Of a stretch of DNA of 64,000 bases, positions 54,192 to 59,490 are shown one piece after another. The position numbers and the translations under genes are program-made. Location of the stretch: the IMG/VR virus record IMGVR_UViG_2671180724_000008; one strand, 5' to 3'. Source of the DNA: a virus. Its lineage: Duplodnaviria > Heunggongvirae > Uroviricota > Caudoviricetes. The notes beneath the pieces were generated by a model. The model did not search any database. It was not told where the DNA came from and worked only from the letters and a program-made list of their open reading frames with translations. Position 1 is the first letter of the stretch. Each line of letters begins with the position of its first letter.

Positions 54192-54478
54192 GCAATTTAA
54201 CTTCTTGGGAATGGTGGTTGGCCACCTATTTCTTAGCGGCCGGAGTCGCATTCGCCTTTTACGTAGGTCAGTTAGTCGTAAAACTGTTGCTGATTAAATT
54301 TGCTAGTCATAAACGTATCGATGATGGTCTGTGGCGTCTTGGCACCCTGGTGGAAACTCGCTACGGGCAACTTAAGGAGAACGAAACCATTACTATCCAA
54401 GCGAAACGATTCACTGCCACCATCACAAGAACACCTAGTCGTAGAGTGGCATTGATCAAAAAAGTCACAACCGAATAA
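54188..54478 (+). CDS. Small membrane protein (96 aa)
   Basis: N-terminal transmembrane helix; basic C-terminus. Confidence 0.5.
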   Translation: MSNLTSWEWWLATYFLAAGVAFAFYVGQLVVKLLLIKFASHKRIDDGLWRLGTLVETRYGQLKENETITIQAKRFTATITRTPSRRVALIKKVTTE

Positions 54479-54868
54479 AAACATATTGATAAGTATTTAC
54501 TTACTTATCTTTTGTGTATAAGATGACTTTGTTTTCGTTGAGACGCGACTGTTTGAACTTAAATACAAGTGCAAACGAAGAAGTCTATCTGGCAGTAGCC
54601 TAATAAGCCAAACACCAGCGAGGTCAGTTTCCAGCCTCGTTACCGAAATGGGACACACTGAGCGAGTGTGATTGCAGAACGCAGGAGGGAACATTCATGT
54701 TCCCTCCGATGAAGTAACAGAATGGGCGGTTGGTATATTTTCAACTCCATATGACTCCCGGATTCTTAGCCACTGACCGCCCATCCTGTTACGTCATTTT
54801 GTTCAATTATGTCGTTTATACTGGGTTAAAAAGCGGCGACGTAGCCCGGCTGGTATGGTTAGCCAGCA

Positions 54869-54990
54869 CACAACGTTGAGGCCATTACATTTTTATCAAT
54901 TCTAAGGTTCTATTCACAGAGATACCGGCGAGCGTTGATATGTAACATGTTGGGCAAACATTCAATCGGAGTAGTGGCCTCAACGTTGTG
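54869..54990. repeat. Long-range inverted repeat (20-bp arms cacaacgttgaggccattac / gtagtggcctcaacgttgtg, ~80-nt loop)
   Basis: Read directly; one of five large hairpins in the tRNA region. Confidence 0.6.
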
Positions 54991-55255
54991 AAGACGGGAT
55001 TGTTGTGTAGGTTTAACCACTGTTGCCATTGGTGCCTGTTTTCACAACAAATGATTCCATACATCACATTGTATAAATTACAAAGTAGGTGCTGTCCTCA
55101 GAAACATCATCTACTTAAAGATTTTGCCTTCTACTATTGAGCGAAGTCGAAAGCGTCTGGCACTAACGAAAAGTGCAAGTAGCGGTGCGTTTCCTGGCAG
55201 AAACTAAACCGTCGCGATTGGCACTGTTGAGTAATAAATACTGGCAGTGCTGAAT

Positions 55256-55331
55256 TGATGGTGTAGCTCAGCGGTAGAGCAGTTGGCTGTTAACCAACTG
55301 GTCGGTGGTTCGAATCCACCCACCATCGCCA
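55256..55331 (+). tRNA. tRNA-Asn (anticodon GTT), phage-type
   Basis: Manual cloverleaf fold: acceptor GATGGTG/CACCATC, anticodon loop CTGTTAA, T-loop GGTTCGAATCC, encoded CCA; differs from E. coli tRNA-Asn. Confidence 0.85.
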
Positions 55332-55336
55332 ATTTA

Positions 55337-55423
55337 GGGGAGTTAGTCCGTAGAGGTAGCGGTGTAGACTGTAAATCTACTGTCATTGCGACTCGGGTGG
55401 TTCGACTCCATCACTCCCCACCA
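55337..55423 (+). tRNA. tRNA-Tyr (anticodon GTA) with long variable arm
   Basis: Acceptor GGGGAGT/ACTCCCC, anticodon loop CTGTAAA, T-loop GGTTCGACTCC, encoded CCA. Confidence 0.8.
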
Positions 55424-55427
55424 AATT

Positions 55428-55503
55428 GCCGGTTTAGCTCAGTTGGTAGAGCGCCTGCCTTGTAAGCAGGATGTCAGCGGTTCGTGTCCGTTAACCGGCA
55501 CCA
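55428..55503 (+). tRNA. tRNA-Thr (anticodon TGT)
   Basis: Acceptor GCCGGTT/AACCGGC, anticodon loop CTTGTAA, T-loop GGTTCGTGTCC, encoded CCA. Confidence 0.8.
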
Positions 55504-55507
55504 ACAT

Positions 55508-55595
55508 AATATTGAGAACATTGGCGTAACGGGGTCATATCCCAATCTATGAATAAATGTTACGTTGCCGCGTGACAACCAGTGTTCTCAACATT
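55508..55595. repeat. Nested inverted repeat immediately 3' of tRNA-Thr (aatattgagaacattgg / ccagtgttctcaacatt with inner cgtaac/gttacg)
   Basis: Read directly; candidate processing element or small structured RNA. Confidence 0.55.
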
Positions 55596-56170
55596 GTGGT
55601 GAATGCACAGGCTGATGTGCCGCAACTACAGTAGTGCGCGCTTTGCGGGGCTTGCTACAACCCTGTGTCGGAGATCAGCGCCGACCATCACAATTTGGCT
55701 CTCTTGCAACAGCATAACGCTGAAATATGTCCAACCTGGTGCGGCCTGTTCACCCGCCGTTAGCTCCACGAAACGGAGCGCACAACAGATAAGAGAACTT
55801 CCCATATGGGGCTTGGCTTAAATGCATCGAGTTCTCTTATCGCTGTGTCACAGACAAATTTCCGACAGCCCTGTTTATCATCGGACGCAACCTAAAAGGT
55901 CGAGGCAAAGCCAGGTAATAGCGGAGGGAGTGACACAGCACACAACAGGTAAGAGCATTTGTAGAGTTCGACTCTCTACCGTGGGCTTTTTCCCGCGATG
56001 CGAGCCATAAATGCTCTTTCCGTTGTGGTGGATTCGCAGACTGATGCGATAGCTTTCTTGGATGTTAGGGAAATGCGGCCGCAAATCTTCCCTTTCGCGA
56101 GCGGTGATCGTCCGTAGTCCTAATTGGCTGCACCGTATGCCGGAGATTCAGTACCGGCCACCACAACGGC

Positions 56171-56257
56171 CGGAGAGTAGGGAGCATGGTGCTCAAGCGG
56201 TCTTGAAAACCGTCCCATTGTGCAAACGATGATGGTTCGATTCCATTACTCTCCGCC
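56171..56257 (+). tRNA. tRNA-Ser (anticodon TGA) with long variable arm
   Basis: Acceptor GGAGAGT/ACTCTCC, anticodon loop CTTGAAA, T-loop GGTTCGATTCC, encoded CCA. Confidence 0.8.
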
Positions 56258-56260
56258 AGA

Positions 56261-56336
56261 CACAGCGTTGAGCGGTTTGGCCTTTTAATCAACTCGATTA
56301 AGACTCCGCTAACATAAACCAGACCGCTCAACGCTG
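56261..56336. repeat. 19-bp-arm inverted repeat immediately 3' of tRNA-Ser (acagcgttgagcggtttgg / ccagaccgctcaacgctgt)
   Basis: Read directly; one mismatch, 38-nt loop. Confidence 0.6.
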
Positions 56337-56414
56337 TGATAGACAATTACGGCAGACGTTCTTAACCATAGCTTGCTAACATCCTAGCAACACTTTTTTT
56401 CAGCGCAAAATTCA

Positions 56415-56436
56415 AAGGGGCTTCGGCCCCTTTTTT
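56415..56436. terminator. Bidirectional rho-independent terminator
   Basis: ggggc ttcg gcccc hairpin with A-run upstream and tttttt downstream; sits between the tRNA region and the end of the minus-strand gene. Confidence 0.7.
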
Positions 56437-56453
56437 GAAAGCAATGGGCAAGT

Positions 56454-57788
56454 TCATGCCAAATTATCCAGATTTCTTTTCTTTTTTTCAATTATATTTC
56501 TCGCGCCAGAAAAAATTTTACTCAAAATAATTGATTTGCTTGCTCTATTATTAAGATGTAACAACGCGCTATAAAATACATAGTTATCTATTTTACTATT
56601 TAAAGTATTCCCAAGCTTCCCGTTATATGTGCTATTAATAGTATTAAAATATACATGTTCAGGACCTATATTACAAATACCCCTATCAACTCGCTTTAAA
56701 TAATGTTTAACTAAAGAAATAGCATCTTCCTTATCATTAATAACATAAAGTCCTGAGCGTTTACCTAGCTTGCTGTCCGAGAATAATTTATAACCAACAA
56801 GTTCATTTAACGTATTATCCACTTTTGTCAACTCTTTGTTGGCAATCTCCAAATAATACTCAATCTCTTTCTCCATATTACTTATTAAAGAGTTAAATTC
56901 TGCTCGTAACAAATCACCACCAGGTGATTTATAACTCCATAAAATTGAATTGGTAATACGTACTACGTCAGATACTTCTGGTTTCTCTGAATAGTTTTTG
57001 TATCTAGTGCAAATAATGCTGTGCTTTATATATTCTCTAACTAATGATCGATAATCCCTTTCGAAAAGGTTTTTGACATCTAGTCTTCCATTGCTTGTTG
57101 TTATTAAGGTGGTGTTTAAAACTGGGTCGCCTTCAAAAAAATTATATTTATTTAGTAATCGTTTTAGCTTGTGTGAATTATGTGATGTTTCGCCATAATA
57201 ATTTATCCCAAAAATAGCAATTATTAGCATAACATCAGGAGTGATGAAATGTCGTAATTGCTCGGCATAAACTTTTTTATCTTCGATTTTCGAAGATGGA
57301 GAGTAAAAACCTTTGTCTATATATTCTAATATTGAAACAATATTACTAACATAACGTATAAAAACTTGATTCATTACAACGGAATCATAAACCTGATGCA
57401 AATAATCTACTCTCAAGTTGTTTTTTATTTTTTCCCCTGTACTAGATGATAACTCTTCTTTTACCTGCCCAAGTAGCTTTTCGTGGTGCTCCAGCAATGT
57501 TTTAAACCATTGTTCAAATGATGATTTTCTTGCCTCAGTTAATGAATCTGATGTTATCTGGACAGCTTTCATAGCTGCTTTCGCACTTTTCTTTGCTTCA
57601 TAAGCGTTCCATGCTGAAGCACAAAAAGCTGCCGCCGTGATGCAACTGGTAAAAATAGAAATCCTATCTGCAACATTCAAGCTCCAGAACCAATCAGACG
57701 ATGAAATCAAAACCACAGATATTACGGGAACAATGAAAATCAAAACAGGCATGTATGTACTCGCTCTAATAGTTATTAGTCGAGGCAA
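56454..57788 (-). CDS. Low-GC 444-aa membrane-anchored protein of unknown function (candidate abortive-infection or defence cargo)
   Basis: Two N-terminal transmembrane segments then a large Lys/Asn/Tyr/Ile-rich soluble domain; strongly AT-rich codon usage unlike the rest of the element; own promoter and terminator. Confidence 0.6.
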   Translation of the reverse strand: MPRLITIRASTYMPVLIFIVPVISVVLISSSDWFWSLNVADRISIFTSCITAAAFCASAWNAYEAKKSAKAAMKAVQITSDSLTEARKSSFEQWFKTLLEHHEKLLGQVKEELSSSTGEKIKNNLRVDYLHQVYDSVVMNQVFIRYVSNIVSILEYIDKGFYSPSSKIEDKKVYAEQLRHFITPDVMLIIAIFGINYYGETSHNSHKLKRLLNKYNFFEGDPVLNTTLITTSNGRLDVKNLFERDYRSLVREYIKHSIICTRYKNYSEKPEVSDVVRITNSILWSYKSPGGDLLRAEFNSLISNMEKEIEYYLEIANKELTKVDNTLNELVGYKLFSDSKLGKRSGLYVINDKEDAISLVKHYLKRVDRGICNIGPEHVYFNTINSTYNGKLGNTLNSKIDNYVFYSALLHLNNRASKSIILSKIFSGARNIIEKKKRNLDNLA

Positions 57789-57845: not shown

Positions 57846-57883
57846 CAACAAATGATAGGTGTGTACATATCTATCATTTGTTG
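57846..57883. promoter_or_regulatory. Perfect 13-bp inverted repeat caacaaatgatag / ctatcatttgttg in the divergent promoter region
   Basis: Read directly; lies between the start of the minus-strand 444-aa gene and the plus-strand glutaredoxin gene. Confidence 0.55.
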
Positions 57884-58254: not shown

Positions 58255-58288
58255 AAATGATTCCATACCTACTATGTATGGAATCATT
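58255..58288. promoter_or_regulatory. 13-bp inverted repeat aatgattccatac / gtatggaatcatt (7-nt spacer) upstream of integrase
   Basis: Read directly; the half-site aaatgattccatac also occurs at 54031-54050 and 55046-55063. Confidence 0.55.
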
Positions 58289-58386: not shown

Positions 58387-59490
58387 ATGAAAAATAGCTT
58401 TGACAGAGCACGCGCTGCGGAGAACACCTCAAAAGAGGCGATTGAGTATCTCGAAAGAGCATCTCAAATGCAGGCCGTTATGATCTCGCAGGTTAGCAAT
58501 GACATGAGATTCTCGGACGCATTCATGTTATTCACTCGCTTATCTCTGCTTATAACCAGACGTCGGCCAGAGATCGCTGTTCATTGTATTTTGATACATG
58601 TTTTGCCGCACATTGCTGATGTAAAAGTAAGTGACATTAATAGGTTCATGGTGAACCAACTGGTAAACCCACTAATACTGGATGGCAAAATTGTTATGGG
58701 CCGCCGCGTTTTCTCTCTGATGAAGCAGTTCCTTAGCTGGTGCGCCTTCCAGGGGATGATAGACGTGTCACCGTTAAACGATATGTCACTAAACAAAGTT
58801 GCCGGTGGCGCAAAGCCCACACCTCGCGAGCGGAAGCTGACCGACGCAGAGGTATGGGTGTTCTGGAATATATGGGACTACTTCAATGTGTGCGCTGGTA
58901 CAAAATGGGCGGCCAGGCTGTGTCTTGTATCAGCAAGACGACCTGACGAAGTACTGCGGGCTAAAAAAAGTGAGTTCAATCTTAAGCGTGGGGTTTGGAA
59001 TCAAGGCAAGAGAAACAAGTCAGCACGTGAGCATTCGCTGCCTTTAAGCACATTAATGCGCACATGCATTGAAGAGTTGTTCGAATACGGTAAAGACAGC
59101 CAGTGGCTCGTGCCTTCGAATAAAAAAATCGGGAAAGACCTTCCTATGTCTAAAGTGGCAATAGCCCAGGCATTACGTCGTATTCTGGAACGACCAGAAC
59201 TGATGGAGCTTGAGCCATTTACACCCCGAGATTTGCGCCGTACTGCGCGTAGTTACTTCCCAGCATTAGGCATAAGCCAGGAGGTATCACGCAAAATCAT
59301 GAACCACAGTCTTGAGGGGATAGATCGGGTCTACGACCGGCACGATTATATGGACGAGATGCGAGACGCCTTAGAAAGTTTCTCGACGTACATCGCATCA
59401 ATCGTAGAGCAACCGGATTTAGACGAAATTGACCACAAATTCAAGGGAGATCGTCTATCAACAGAGCTTATTCGTGTAAATTTTTCATAG
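58387..59490 (+). CDS. Tyrosine integrase (site-specific recombinase)
   Basis: C-terminal catalytic pattern: Arg in RRPDEV, HSLEGIDRVYDRHDY region with His/Arg and terminal Tyr; 367 aa. Confidence 0.85.
   Translation: MKNSFDRARAAENTSKEAIEYLERASQMQAVMISQVSNDMRFSDAFMLFTRLSLLITRRRPEIAVHCILIHVLPHIADVKVSDINRFMVNQLVNPLILDGKIVMGRRVFSLMKQFLSWCAFQGMIDVSPLNDMSLNKVAGGAKPTPRERKLTDAEVWVFWNIWDYFNVCAGTKWAARLCLVSARRPDEVLRAKKSEFNLKRGVWNQGKRNKSAREHSLPLSTLMRTCIEELFEYGKDSQWLVPSNKKIGKDLPMSKVAIAQALRRILERPELMELEPFTPRDLRRTARSYFPALGISQEVSRKIMNHSLEGIDRVYDRHDYMDEMRDALESFSTYIASIVEQPDLDEIDHKFKGDRLSTELIRVNFS

Follow-up and report, generated by a model that had tools for sequence, protein, structure and literature searches.

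The non-coding array considered here lies on the + strand at 54.5-56.4 kb of the virus record IMGVR_UViG_2671180724_000008 (Duplodnaviria; Heunggongvirae; Uroviricota; Caudoviricetes), a stretch of 64,000 nucleotides (nt) referred to as the window, and comprises four tRNA genes interspersed with two kinds of RNA element, a long hairpin, H, and a tRNA-like module, M. Several described systems share parts of this organization. In transfer-messenger RNA (tmRNA) and in the bacterial Y RNA YrlA, an acceptor-like stem is combined with T-arm- and D-loop-like elements and the anticodon arm is replaced, as in M. A long stem accompanies the tRNA-like domain of YrlA; that stem is formed by the RNA's own ends, whereas in the array the H hairpin stands beside the tRNA-like domain. 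Unlike the tRNA-like domains of tmRNA and YrlA, most M modules encode no CCA. The YrlA model (RF02553, gathering score 69 bits) has no match in the window at an E value of 10, and in phage P1 it reaches 25.6 bits (E 0.12) over real tRNAs.

In engineered tRNA scaffolds, a cargo RNA replaces the anticodon arm for stability and processing, and in both polycistronic tRNA-guide RNA arrays and the tRNA punctuation of mitochondrial transcripts, tRNAs serve as cut marks that release the RNAs between them. The array would differ from these engineered and organellar examples in being a natural phage system, the processing of which is predicted. The RNAs C and D of phage T4 are small stable non-tRNA RNAs that are co-transcribed with tRNAs and matured by the host tRNA-processing enzymes; they are not known to be part of a modular, insert-swapping family, and they are compared with the array here by description and not by sequence. 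T4-type phages also carry PeSL cassettes, conserved stem-loop repeats at module boundaries that accompany shuffling. These are promoter-plus-stem-loop DNA motifs flanking protein genes, in contrast to the H/M scaffold, which displays selection at the RNA level and signs of tRNA ancestry.

The nearest known family is STnc100 (RF02076), whose genes neighbor Q, stx, and the lysis genes of lambdoid and Stx prophages. As in M, a closing stem, ca-UGGUG...CACCA-ug, encloses an AAU, a 5' hairpin, a variable middle, and a 3' CCGG..CCGG hairpin beside the closing strand. The M modules upstream of tciA in phages P1 and D6 score 33-40 bits on the STnc100 model, for which the cut-off is 47 (33.4-39.6 bits for the modules of P1, D6, and Ro157c2YLVW); no match is found in the window up to E 10, and none of 12 lambdoid loci with an H/M unit attains the gathering score. 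The STnc100 RNA, encoded 75 nt downstream of stx2, has been detected, and the PCR (polymerase chain reaction) primers published for it display the ends of the M scaffold (PMC12370729). It has been grouped with PasD as a prophage small RNA, and PasD was recovered with Hfq (bioRxiv 10.64898/2026.05.13.724894). These papers differ from the present account in that they describe no tRNA ancestry, preceding H hairpin, insert swapping, or tandem tRNA arrays; the comparison made here links STnc100 and PasD to a tRNA origin. The sub-threshold STnc100-like module is positioned directly upstream of tciA, a TerB-like gene, in P1 (L002 3183-3302), D6 (L003 3266-3386), and contig L126 (3459-3578), and TerB genes lie near PasA and PasC in lambdoid prophages (10.64898/2026.05.13.724894), such that the pairing of a scaffold RNA with a TerB gene may be conserved.

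In the window and in the loci of P1, D6, N4-type phages, and Ro157, as well as in 19 lambdoid-type loci, searches with Rfam to E 10 return only tRNAs, unrelated small RNAs, and sub-threshold matches to STnc100 and tmRNA; on the 12 lambdoid loci noted above, no Rfam family reaches its threshold. No description was found in the literature on P1 ban-operon RNAs, phage tRNA-cluster hairpins, tRNA-like prophage small RNAs, or the scaffold sequences. H/M apparently constitutes a larger RNA family that has not been described before. The reading that we favor, to which we assign a probability of roughly 0.55, is that the array would be transcribed into one RNA, in which tRNAs and tRNA-like modules act as punctuation and which tRNA-processing enzymes would cut into stable small RNAs.

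The H and M Elements of the Array

The H element has three parts, a conserved base helix (CACAAC/GUUGUG, or a variant that covaries), a stem of ~20 bp (~18-23 bp), and a variable top, and its 3' arm continues into M. The M module is composed of a closing stem, GUUGUGGUG/CACCACAAC, a D-arm-like hairpin, a second variable insert, and a T-arm-like hairpin. Six hairpins of the H architecture (H9 and A-E) and four M modules (M0, M1, Mc, and M2) are observed in the window (Table 1). Five of these hairpins had been noticed as large inverted repeats in a preliminary description of the sequence. All five are present, with slightly shifted bounds, and their folding z-scores, calculated against 200 dinucleotide shuffles, range from −4.5 to −9.8; for none of hairpins A-E is any of the 200 shuffles equally stable. 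Hairpin B begins inside the CCA of tRNA-Thr, at 55502 and not at 55508, the bounds first given for hairpin C (55788-55841) enclose its inner part only, and hairpin D extends past those reported for it (55951-56018). The GTTGAG core that was ascribed to three stems is found in hairpins A and E (CACARCGTTGAG), whereas the 5' and 3' arms of hairpin B contain ATTGAG and CTCAAC, respectively. Five copies of the motif CACARCRTTGAG are present in 64 kb (1.3 expected), always within the array region, and no family-type hairpins were found elsewhere in the window.

The preliminary description had recognized only half of the repeat unit, missing hairpin H9, the M modules, the swappable inserts, and the spread of the family beyond tRNA clusters. 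The four M stems have the opposite polarity (GTTGTG...CACAAC) and alternate with the hairpins, each sharing GTTGTG bases with the hairpin that precedes it: hairpin A leads into M0, C into Mc, and D into M2. Hairpin B both overlaps the CCA of tRNA-Thr and enters M1, and hairpin E follows tRNA-Ser, consistent with the earlier remark that two hairpins lie near tRNA 3' ends (0-3 nt for B and E). M1 and M2 can be aligned with the M family, of which they are members, in each of the three helices, and both display compensatory changes (for M1, as compared with the consensus). M0 and Mc are partial members that have the closing stem only; Mc is without D-like or T-like hairpins, and its inner sequence (AAAGGTCGAGGCAAAG..GGTAAT) is found again in contig L158. 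Both P1 and D6 have a similarly placed mini-module, of different sequence, after a hairpin termed H0. No tRNA matches were found on M0, M1, Mc, M2, or the hairpin tops with Rfam at E values up to 10, and ARAGORN, with introns allowed, finds no intron-containing tRNAs in the window. An extra T-arm-like hairpin that had been reported at 55961-55979 (GTAGAG-TTCGACT-CTCTAC) is real and covaries in relatives; this element is not a tRNA that escaped detection but forms part of the variable top of hairpin D, as a conserved, T-loop-like hairpin.

Conservation and Covariation

Profiles trained on lambdoid contigs only, and hence independent of the window sequences, find B-M1 and D-M2 at E values of 1e-10 to 3e-5, and nothing else below E 0.3 in 64 kb. 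The 5' junction is matched at E 1.9e-8 in M1 (hairpin B region, 55580-55620) and at E 1e-10 in M2 (3' arm of hairpin D plus the 5' end of M), the 3' ends of M1 and M2 are matched at E 9.8e-6 and 3.3e-5, respectively, and the 5' arm of hairpin D is matched at E 2.7e-5. Hairpins A and E, which belong to the GTTGAG subtype, are not detected by the lambdoid-trained profile. An alignment of hairpins A, C, D, E, and H9 includes 25 relatives; hairpin B was aligned with its orthologue in P1. Covariance models derived from scaffolds without inserts were set aside because they perform poorly with long inserts and, having window sequences in their training, are circular.

Comparison of orthologous hairpins from 69 related loci shows that variation is approximately three times less frequent at paired positions (34 of 518 columns) than at unpaired positions (67 of 310 columns); in the orthologues of hairpin E, variation is confined to the unpaired columns (9 of 46, compared with 0 of 56 paired). 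Substitutions within stems, counted from the pair tables, include 22 switches between Watson-Crick and G-U pairs and four that give A-C. Duplex DNA would make these two outcomes equally likely, and the bias therefore indicates that it is the + strand, the strand of the tRNAs, that folds. In an alignment of 30 diverse H arm pairs, 13 of the 18 consensus pairs display compensatory changes. Paralogous hairpins have only the stem base in common, and their outer stems are wholly different yet complementary. Similarly, nine of the 17 pairs in the M helices change on both sides, compared with 2.9 in shuffles, 0 of 500 of which reach nine, and shifted-register controls give far lower values. The H hairpins and M modules are selected RNA structures on the + strand. 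The preliminary description had suggested processing sites or small stable RNAs. This points in the right direction: the covariation and the preference for G-U over A-C identify the hairpins as RNA structures under conservation, and these exactly adjoin the ends of tRNAs or tRNA-like modules.

Relationship of M to tRNA

A series of intermediates, seen in contigs L222, L170, L187, and L131, indicates that M derives from tRNA. In L222, the M position is occupied by a module with a canonical D arm (TAGCTCAGATGGTTAGAGC) and a canonical T arm (GCCGGTTCAAATCCGGC), the acceptor pair TGTGGTG/CACCACA, a discriminator A, and CCA (ending CACCACA-A-CCA), which ARAGORN calls as a tRNA with an intron. The M module of L170 carries a canonical T arm. 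In L187, a tRNA-Thr located ~130 nt upstream of the H hairpin has ~75 unrelated nt in place of its anticodon arm, with the D arm, T arm, acceptor, and CCA intact; judged from its sequence, it appears to be a snapshot of a tRNA becoming a scaffold. In L131, L175, and L182, the place of M is taken by a real tRNA-Arg(UCU), which overlaps the hairpin in that its bases 1-3 also end the H 3' arm.

The same relationship is visible from the side of the hairpins. H begins within the CCA, or no more than 3 nt after it, at tRNA-Thr and tRNA-Ser of the window, at tRNA-Thr and tRNA-Ser of P1 and D6, and at tRNA-Asn of L134. N4-type phages have comparable hairpins, with 24-27-nt arms, immediately downstream of the CCA ends of tRNA-Thr and a pseudo-tRNA. 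H is a spacer that is structured throughout, and its base helix adjoins the 3' end of one tRNA or tRNA-like module and the 5' end of the next, and the recurrent CACCACAAC motif is an acceptor 3' strand followed by the discriminator and the start of H.

The acceptor pairs of the tRNA-Arg(UCU) in the lambdoid-type contigs L131, L175, and L182, read from the ARAGORN sequence, are G1-C72, U2-G71, and G3-U70. G3-U70 is the main identity mark of tRNA-Ala, and because of this pair, these phage tRNAs might be charged with alanine.

Distribution of the Family

Members of the family are present in P1-, D6-, SSU5-, and lambdoid-type phages. Scanning of viral contigs with the arm motif yields at least 98 new loci with at least 85 distinct H sequences among the matches listed, to which the following description of these loci is limited. 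Most lie on contigs of ~20-60 kb, and most are without a nearby tRNA. Their arms are nearly invariant (CACAACAGGTAAGAGCATTG ... CAGTGCTCTTTCCGTTGTG), and the 40-55 nt between the arms are unrelated from locus to locus. The H 3' arm leads straight into the 5' frame of M, GTGGTG-AAT-GCGC-AGGCTGAT-GCGC, which is followed by 20-150 variable nt and then by CCGG-AGATCAGCA-CCGG-CCACCACAAC. With these elements, what had been a patch of intergenic hairpins would become a defined RNA family.

The commonest H/M junction is present in more than one-tenth of complete E. coli genomes (628 of 5426), as well as in phage P1. It is almost always chromosomal and never falls under an annotated feature; no annotation pipeline currently reports the family. 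Among species-representative genomes, the junction occurs mainly in Enterobacterales (Klebsiella, Raoultella, Kosakonia, Pluralibacter, Pseudocitrobacter, and Rouxiella), with two isolated matches outside this order, in Martelella and in a Geobacteraceae metagenome bin. The unit of one lambdoid prophage lies between the Q antiterminator gene and the holin gene, directly after a tR'-like terminator, and that of another prophage, e14-like by its gene names, follows a cI-like repressor gene. The Q-to-holin region of the E. coli K-12 prophage DLP12 contains no unit. The position after a tR'-like terminator and that in the leader of the C1-controlled ban operon of P1 would suit high transcription.

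This distribution bears on the possibility that the field is simply a graveyard, in which tRNA genes and their spacers decay without any function today. Remnants of T arms are indeed common, as are pseudo 3' ends, for example, TAACCGGCACTA before hairpin B in P1; the units are dispensable, as phage Cyrano proceeds directly from tRNA-Thr to tRNA-Ser; and the folding energies of M1 and Mc are unremarkable. Decay would not, however, hold the arms nearly invariant during insert turnover, and neither the conservation of the scaffold, with covariation, across all four phage types nor the abundance of the junction in E. coli genomes is expected of it, which makes a graveyard very improbable.

Exchange of Inserts and Units

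The 69 P1-, D6-, and SSU5-type loci display 21 different orders of tRNAs and H/M units, and the insertions and deletions among them are whole H+M units bounded by CACAAC. Inserts are also replaced within units. Contigs L131 and L175 have flanks that are 99 and 93% identical around an insert at background level, and between the window and contig L020, flanks of 96 and 95% identity surround unrelated M1 inserts. Approximately 75 unrelated insert groups are observed for H and at least nine for M among the matches listed. T-loop hairpins that covary, as in hairpin D, occur among the inserts, and five M inserts (L155, L162, L159, L207, and L160) contain a segment resembling helix 11 of 16S rRNA (AGCTAGATGGTGAGGTAATGGCTCACCATGGCGACGA), with 86-90% identity over 29 nt to nt 254-282 of E. 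coli rrsB and compensatory stem changes. Capture of rRNA or tRNA as the general origin of inserts was considered and rejected, as only the helix-11-like group and matches of 13-14 nt were found. An origin as a miniature inverted-repeat transposable element or other transposon remnant was likewise rejected: the insides are unrelated, the copies within the 64 kb are confined to the array, and the insertions and deletions are bounded by CACAAC and not by a target duplication.

The mosaic arrays, the CACAAC-bounded insertions and deletions, and the swapping of inserts between near-identical flanks, with identical arms around unrelated inserts, would also be expected if the arms acted only as DNA homology blocks for module shuffling, comparable to the PeSL cassettes, with the hairpin potential as a by-product. 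Homology blocks have no need of inverted repeats, however, and a role in duplex DNA does not predict the excess of G-U over A-C changes, the lower variability of paired columns, or the compensatory changes that preserve pairing in diverged paralogs whose arms share no sequence. We consider it improbable that the arms serve as DNA alone.

Proposed Processing of the Array Transcript

In the transcript model favored here, the array would be transcribed as a single RNA, and RNase P would cut at the 5' end of every tRNA or M module, that is, at the foot of each H. The RNase P sites predicted for M1 and M2 are 55594/55595 and 56023/56024, with U at position −1 in both. The 3' ends would be processed after the acceptor strands by RNase E, RNase III, or exonucleases, with RNase III possibly acting on the two-turn stems. 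The products would be mature tRNAs together with stable H hairpin RNAs and M scaffold RNAs, the inserts of which may carry the function, as base-pairing seeds or as mimics of cellular RNAs. The conserved scaffold segments could double as short homology arms through which inserts or whole units are swapped between phages. This provides a testable model of how phages might exploit tRNA processing to obtain numerous small RNAs from a single transcript, and it would explain the mosaicism of these regions.

Several observations do not sit easily with this model. M1 and Mc fold no better than shuffles, and M1 and M2 are unmatched by the Rfam tRNA and STnc100 models even at E 10. The unit is imperfectly regular, in that hairpins A, C, and D are preceded by no real tRNA and hairpin E precedes no M. 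Because only two of 40 distinct M modules encode CCA, and because the T-like loop of M has 9 nt rather than 7, it is uncertain whether RNase P or the CCA-adding enzyme would recognize M. The GUUGUG bases belong both to the foot of H and to the acceptor-like stem of M, so that full formation of one excludes that of the other. In addition, the H arms are nearly invariant, down to a bulged A, a U-U mismatch, and a U-G pair that are conserved in the commonest arms; this hints that they bind a specific partner, which the model leaves unnamed. Finally, every cleavage site in the array or its close relatives is a prediction, and the function of the inserts is inferred.

A simpler role would be that the hairpins are RNase III sites or protective stem-loops, such as are known in T7 early RNAs and rRNA operons, that separate or stabilize the tRNA precursors, with the tops and M as functionless spacer. 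The stems are ~20-23 bp, or two helical turns, regardless of loop size, which fits the length of an RNase III substrate, cleavage itself being predicted only, and several hairpins begin right after a CCA. RNase III reportedly takes part in the processing of the T4 tRNA cluster (Pragai and Apirion 1981), and such a role would be compatible with the transcript model on the 3' side of the tRNAs. As the whole explanation it is unlikely: the M scaffold itself covaries, a generic double-stranded site does not require conserved arm sequences with non-Watson-Crick features, and most of the listed members in lambdoid prophages have no tRNA nearby.

A wider and rather doubtful extension of the transcript model is that temperate enterobacterial phages keep a recombination-shuffled library of RNA cargoes on a leader hairpin and a tRNA-derived scaffold, released by host tRNA processing, so that the array would be a toolkit of decoys or regulators evolving by cassette swaps in phage-host and phage-phage conflict. 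Within this extension, some cargoes would mimic cellular RNAs, as suggested by the 16S helix-11-like segment, the T-loop hairpins, and the adjacent tmRNA-like tag frame described below. If true, it would be a natural counterpart of engineered tRNA scaffolds and tRNA-punctuated arrays, and there is a substantial chance that the arrangement of cargo on scaffold is a new kind of phage system. Inserts that act as decoys or regulators would open a new arena of phage-host conflict and offer a natural template for RNA-scaffold engineering.

Genomic Setting and Features of the Array

The positions of the individual features are given in Table 1. No notable open reading frame (ORF) was listed within 54478-56454, and the array is best explained as one non-coding stretch at the 3' end of the helicase/ligase operon of an SSU5-like phage-plasmid. 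Positions 54800-56437 are 98.5% identical to plasmid p009_B (NZ_CP048306.1) of E. coli strain 9, in which the array is preceded by a DnaB-like helicase, several small ORFs, and a DNA ligase and is followed by a minus-strand ORF, a glutaredoxin gene, and a tyrosine recombinase gene. The window also matches phages such as CMS-2020a and Cyrano, and from the gene set and the phage matches we take it to be an SSU5/pHCM2-like phage-plasmid. A shorter segment, 55398-55795, is ~90% identical to phage P1. Its P1 counterpart sits in the leader of the C1-repressed ban operon, where the order is promoter, dicF-like region, tRNA-Asn, tRNA-Thr, plp and upl (on the other strand), tciABC, tRNA-Ile, and ban.

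Table 1. Positions in the window of the array elements and neighboring features (z, folding z-score).
Feature	Position	Strand	z	Description
U module	54530-54660	+		Tag-like frame (54571-54606), then small hairpins; same non-coding stretch as the array
Hairpin H9	54709-54797	+	−5.2	GTAACAGAATGGGCGG... / ...CCGCCCATCCTGTTAC; 22-nt arms; aligns with the family
Hairpin A	54869-54990	+	−5.9	CACAACGTTGAGGCCATTAC / GTAGTGGCCTCAACGTTGTG; 20-nt arms, 95% complementary; 82-nt top
M0	54985-55048	+	−3.4	Small module; closing GTTGTGAAGACGGG / CCTGTTTTCACAAC; shares GTTGTG with hairpin A
tRNA-Asn(GUU)	55257-55331	+		ARAGORN; Rfam tRNA 75.5 bits; CCA encoded
tRNA-Tyr(GUA)	55337-55423	+		ARAGORN; Rfam tRNA 41.6 bits; CCA encoded
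tRNA-Thr(UGU)	55428-55503	+		ARAGORN; Rfam tRNA 71.1 bits; CCA encoded
Hairpin B	55502-55601	+	−4.7	5' arm begins in tRNA-Thr CCA; top contains a decayed T-arm-like hairpin (GGGGTCATATCCC)
M1	55593-55694	+	−0.4	Acceptor-like stem ATTGTGGTG / CATCACAAT; D-like hairpin GCAC-AGGCTGAT-GTGC; T-like hairpin TCGG-AGATCAGCG-CCGA; 47-nt insert (var2)
Short hairpin	55763-55779	+		GCTCC-ACGAAAC-GGAGC; in the 86-nt spacer before hairpin C
Hairpin C	55781-55847	+	−4.5	CACAACAGATAAGAGAACT / AGTTCTCTTATCGCTGTG; profile match 55781-55800, E 0.024
Mc	55843-55938	+	−0.3	Closing CTGTGTCAC / GTGACACAG; folding energy alone gives no support
Hairpin D	55941-56027	+	−6.1	CACAACAGGTAAGAGCATT / AATGCTCTTTCCGTTGTG, the commonest arm type of the family
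M2	56022-56167	+	−2.4	GTTGTGGTG / CACCACAAC; D-like hairpin TCGC-AGACTGAT-GCGA; T-like hairpin GCCGG-AGATTCAGTA-CCGGC; ~109-nt insert; ends 4 nt before tRNA-Ser
tRNA-Ser(UGA)	56172-56258	+		ARAGORN only; CCA encoded; long variable arm
Hairpin E	56261-56338	+	−9.8	CACAGCGTTGAGCGGTTTGG / CCAGACCGCTCAACGCTGTG; begins 3 nt past tRNA-Ser CCA
Stem-loop	56417-56436	not assigned		GC-rich, GGGGC-TTCG-GCCCC plus T run
Tyrosine recombinase gene	58387-59490			~2 kb downstream of the array

The four tRNA genes with encoded CCA ends that had been reported, for Asn, Tyr, Thr, and Ser, are all called by ARAGORN, and the first three pass the Rfam tRNA model (RF00005, gathering score 29 bits). The best Rfam match of tRNA-Ser(UGA) is the tRNA-Sec model, at 46.8 bits just below the cut-off of 47. 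Its D arm is unusual, with a stem of 5-6 bp and a loop of 4 nt, and this long-stem, short-loop arm is the reason for the tRNA-Sec-like score. In the D6 record, tRNAscan-SE gave the tRNA-Ser no isotype. The short hairpin in the spacer before hairpin C is shared with L020, in which it is followed by ACACAAC and then by tRNA-Ser.

Protein coding of the array was considered and rejected, as a 72-codon ORF on the + strand (55603-55821) has a stop as its codon 31 in P1. In a segment of P1 that is mosaic among relatives, the annotated genes plp and upl (L002 2575-3144; P1 record 69472-70041) are antisense to an M module and to H hairpins that covary; plp and upl are probably not genuine protein genes. 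The stem-loop downstream of hairpin E is a probable two-way terminator that closes the array and faces a minus-strand gene (56454-57788); the consensus terminator scan did not list it.

The downstream tyrosine recombinase gene raises the question of whether the hairpins are attC- or att-like single-strand sites of this enzyme, with the tRNAs as cassettes, in line with an earlier suggestion that they might be degenerate att-like copies. Their ends (...AAC / GTT...), their lengths of 60-122 nt, within the attC range, and the cassette-like arrays are compatible with such sites. On the other hand, the stems are near-perfect and without attC-type unpaired features, those of hairpins A and E being perfect, with neither an unpaired central spacer nor extrahelical bases. 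The base motif ACACAAC does not fit RYYYAAC, the recombinase matches a generic integrase domain only, far under the cut-off, and no integron-integrase family, and P1, N4-type, and lambdoid phages have like hairpins with no adjacent recombinase gene. Recombination sites of this kind are extremely improbable, and the att-like proposal is not upheld. Between the minus-strand ORF and the recombinase gene lie two near-perfect palindromes, 57846-57883 (19-nt arms) and 58256-58288 (16-nt arms), with 0-1 nt between the arms, which could be operator or recombination sites.

The Upstream Module with a tmRNA-Like Tag Frame

The U module contains a tmRNA-like tag frame, GCA AAC GAA GAA GTC TAT CTG GCA GTA GCC TAA TAA, which encodes ANEEVYLAVA followed by two stop codons. 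A variant, ANDDLMMVAA*, is present in P1 (L002 ~2047-2079); others are ANEEMYLAVA*, ANDEQFLAVA*, ANDNQYLAVA*, and ANDDVVLMAA*, and the frame also occurs in D6 and in contigs L145, L180, and L193. The ten tag variants are constant in length and pattern, all having 10 codons, a start of AN[D/E], and a hydrophobic/Ala end, and all but one have an AAAU-like context before the frame and a stop codon within a hairpin. The SsrA tag of E. coli is ANDENYALAA, which the variants resemble in their start and in their hydrophobic/Ala end. The Rfam models tmRNA_permuted and beta_tmRNA match weakly (14-24 bits, compared with cut-offs of 47-84), aligning only the tag region. ARAGORN reports nothing on the U module at default settings and calls a permuted tmRNA only when the threshold is lowered to 80%; neither program finds a tRNA-like partner domain for the frame. 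Of 5426 E. coli genomes, 136 have a lambdoid version of the tag frame, which is unannotated. The start of the tag frame (54569-54581, GTGCAAACGAAGA) and the variable arm of tRNA-Ser (56220-56232, GTGCAAACGATGA) form a 13-nt near-repeat, and the corresponding segments of P1 and D6 resemble each other likewise; the likeness may reflect chance or common ancestry.

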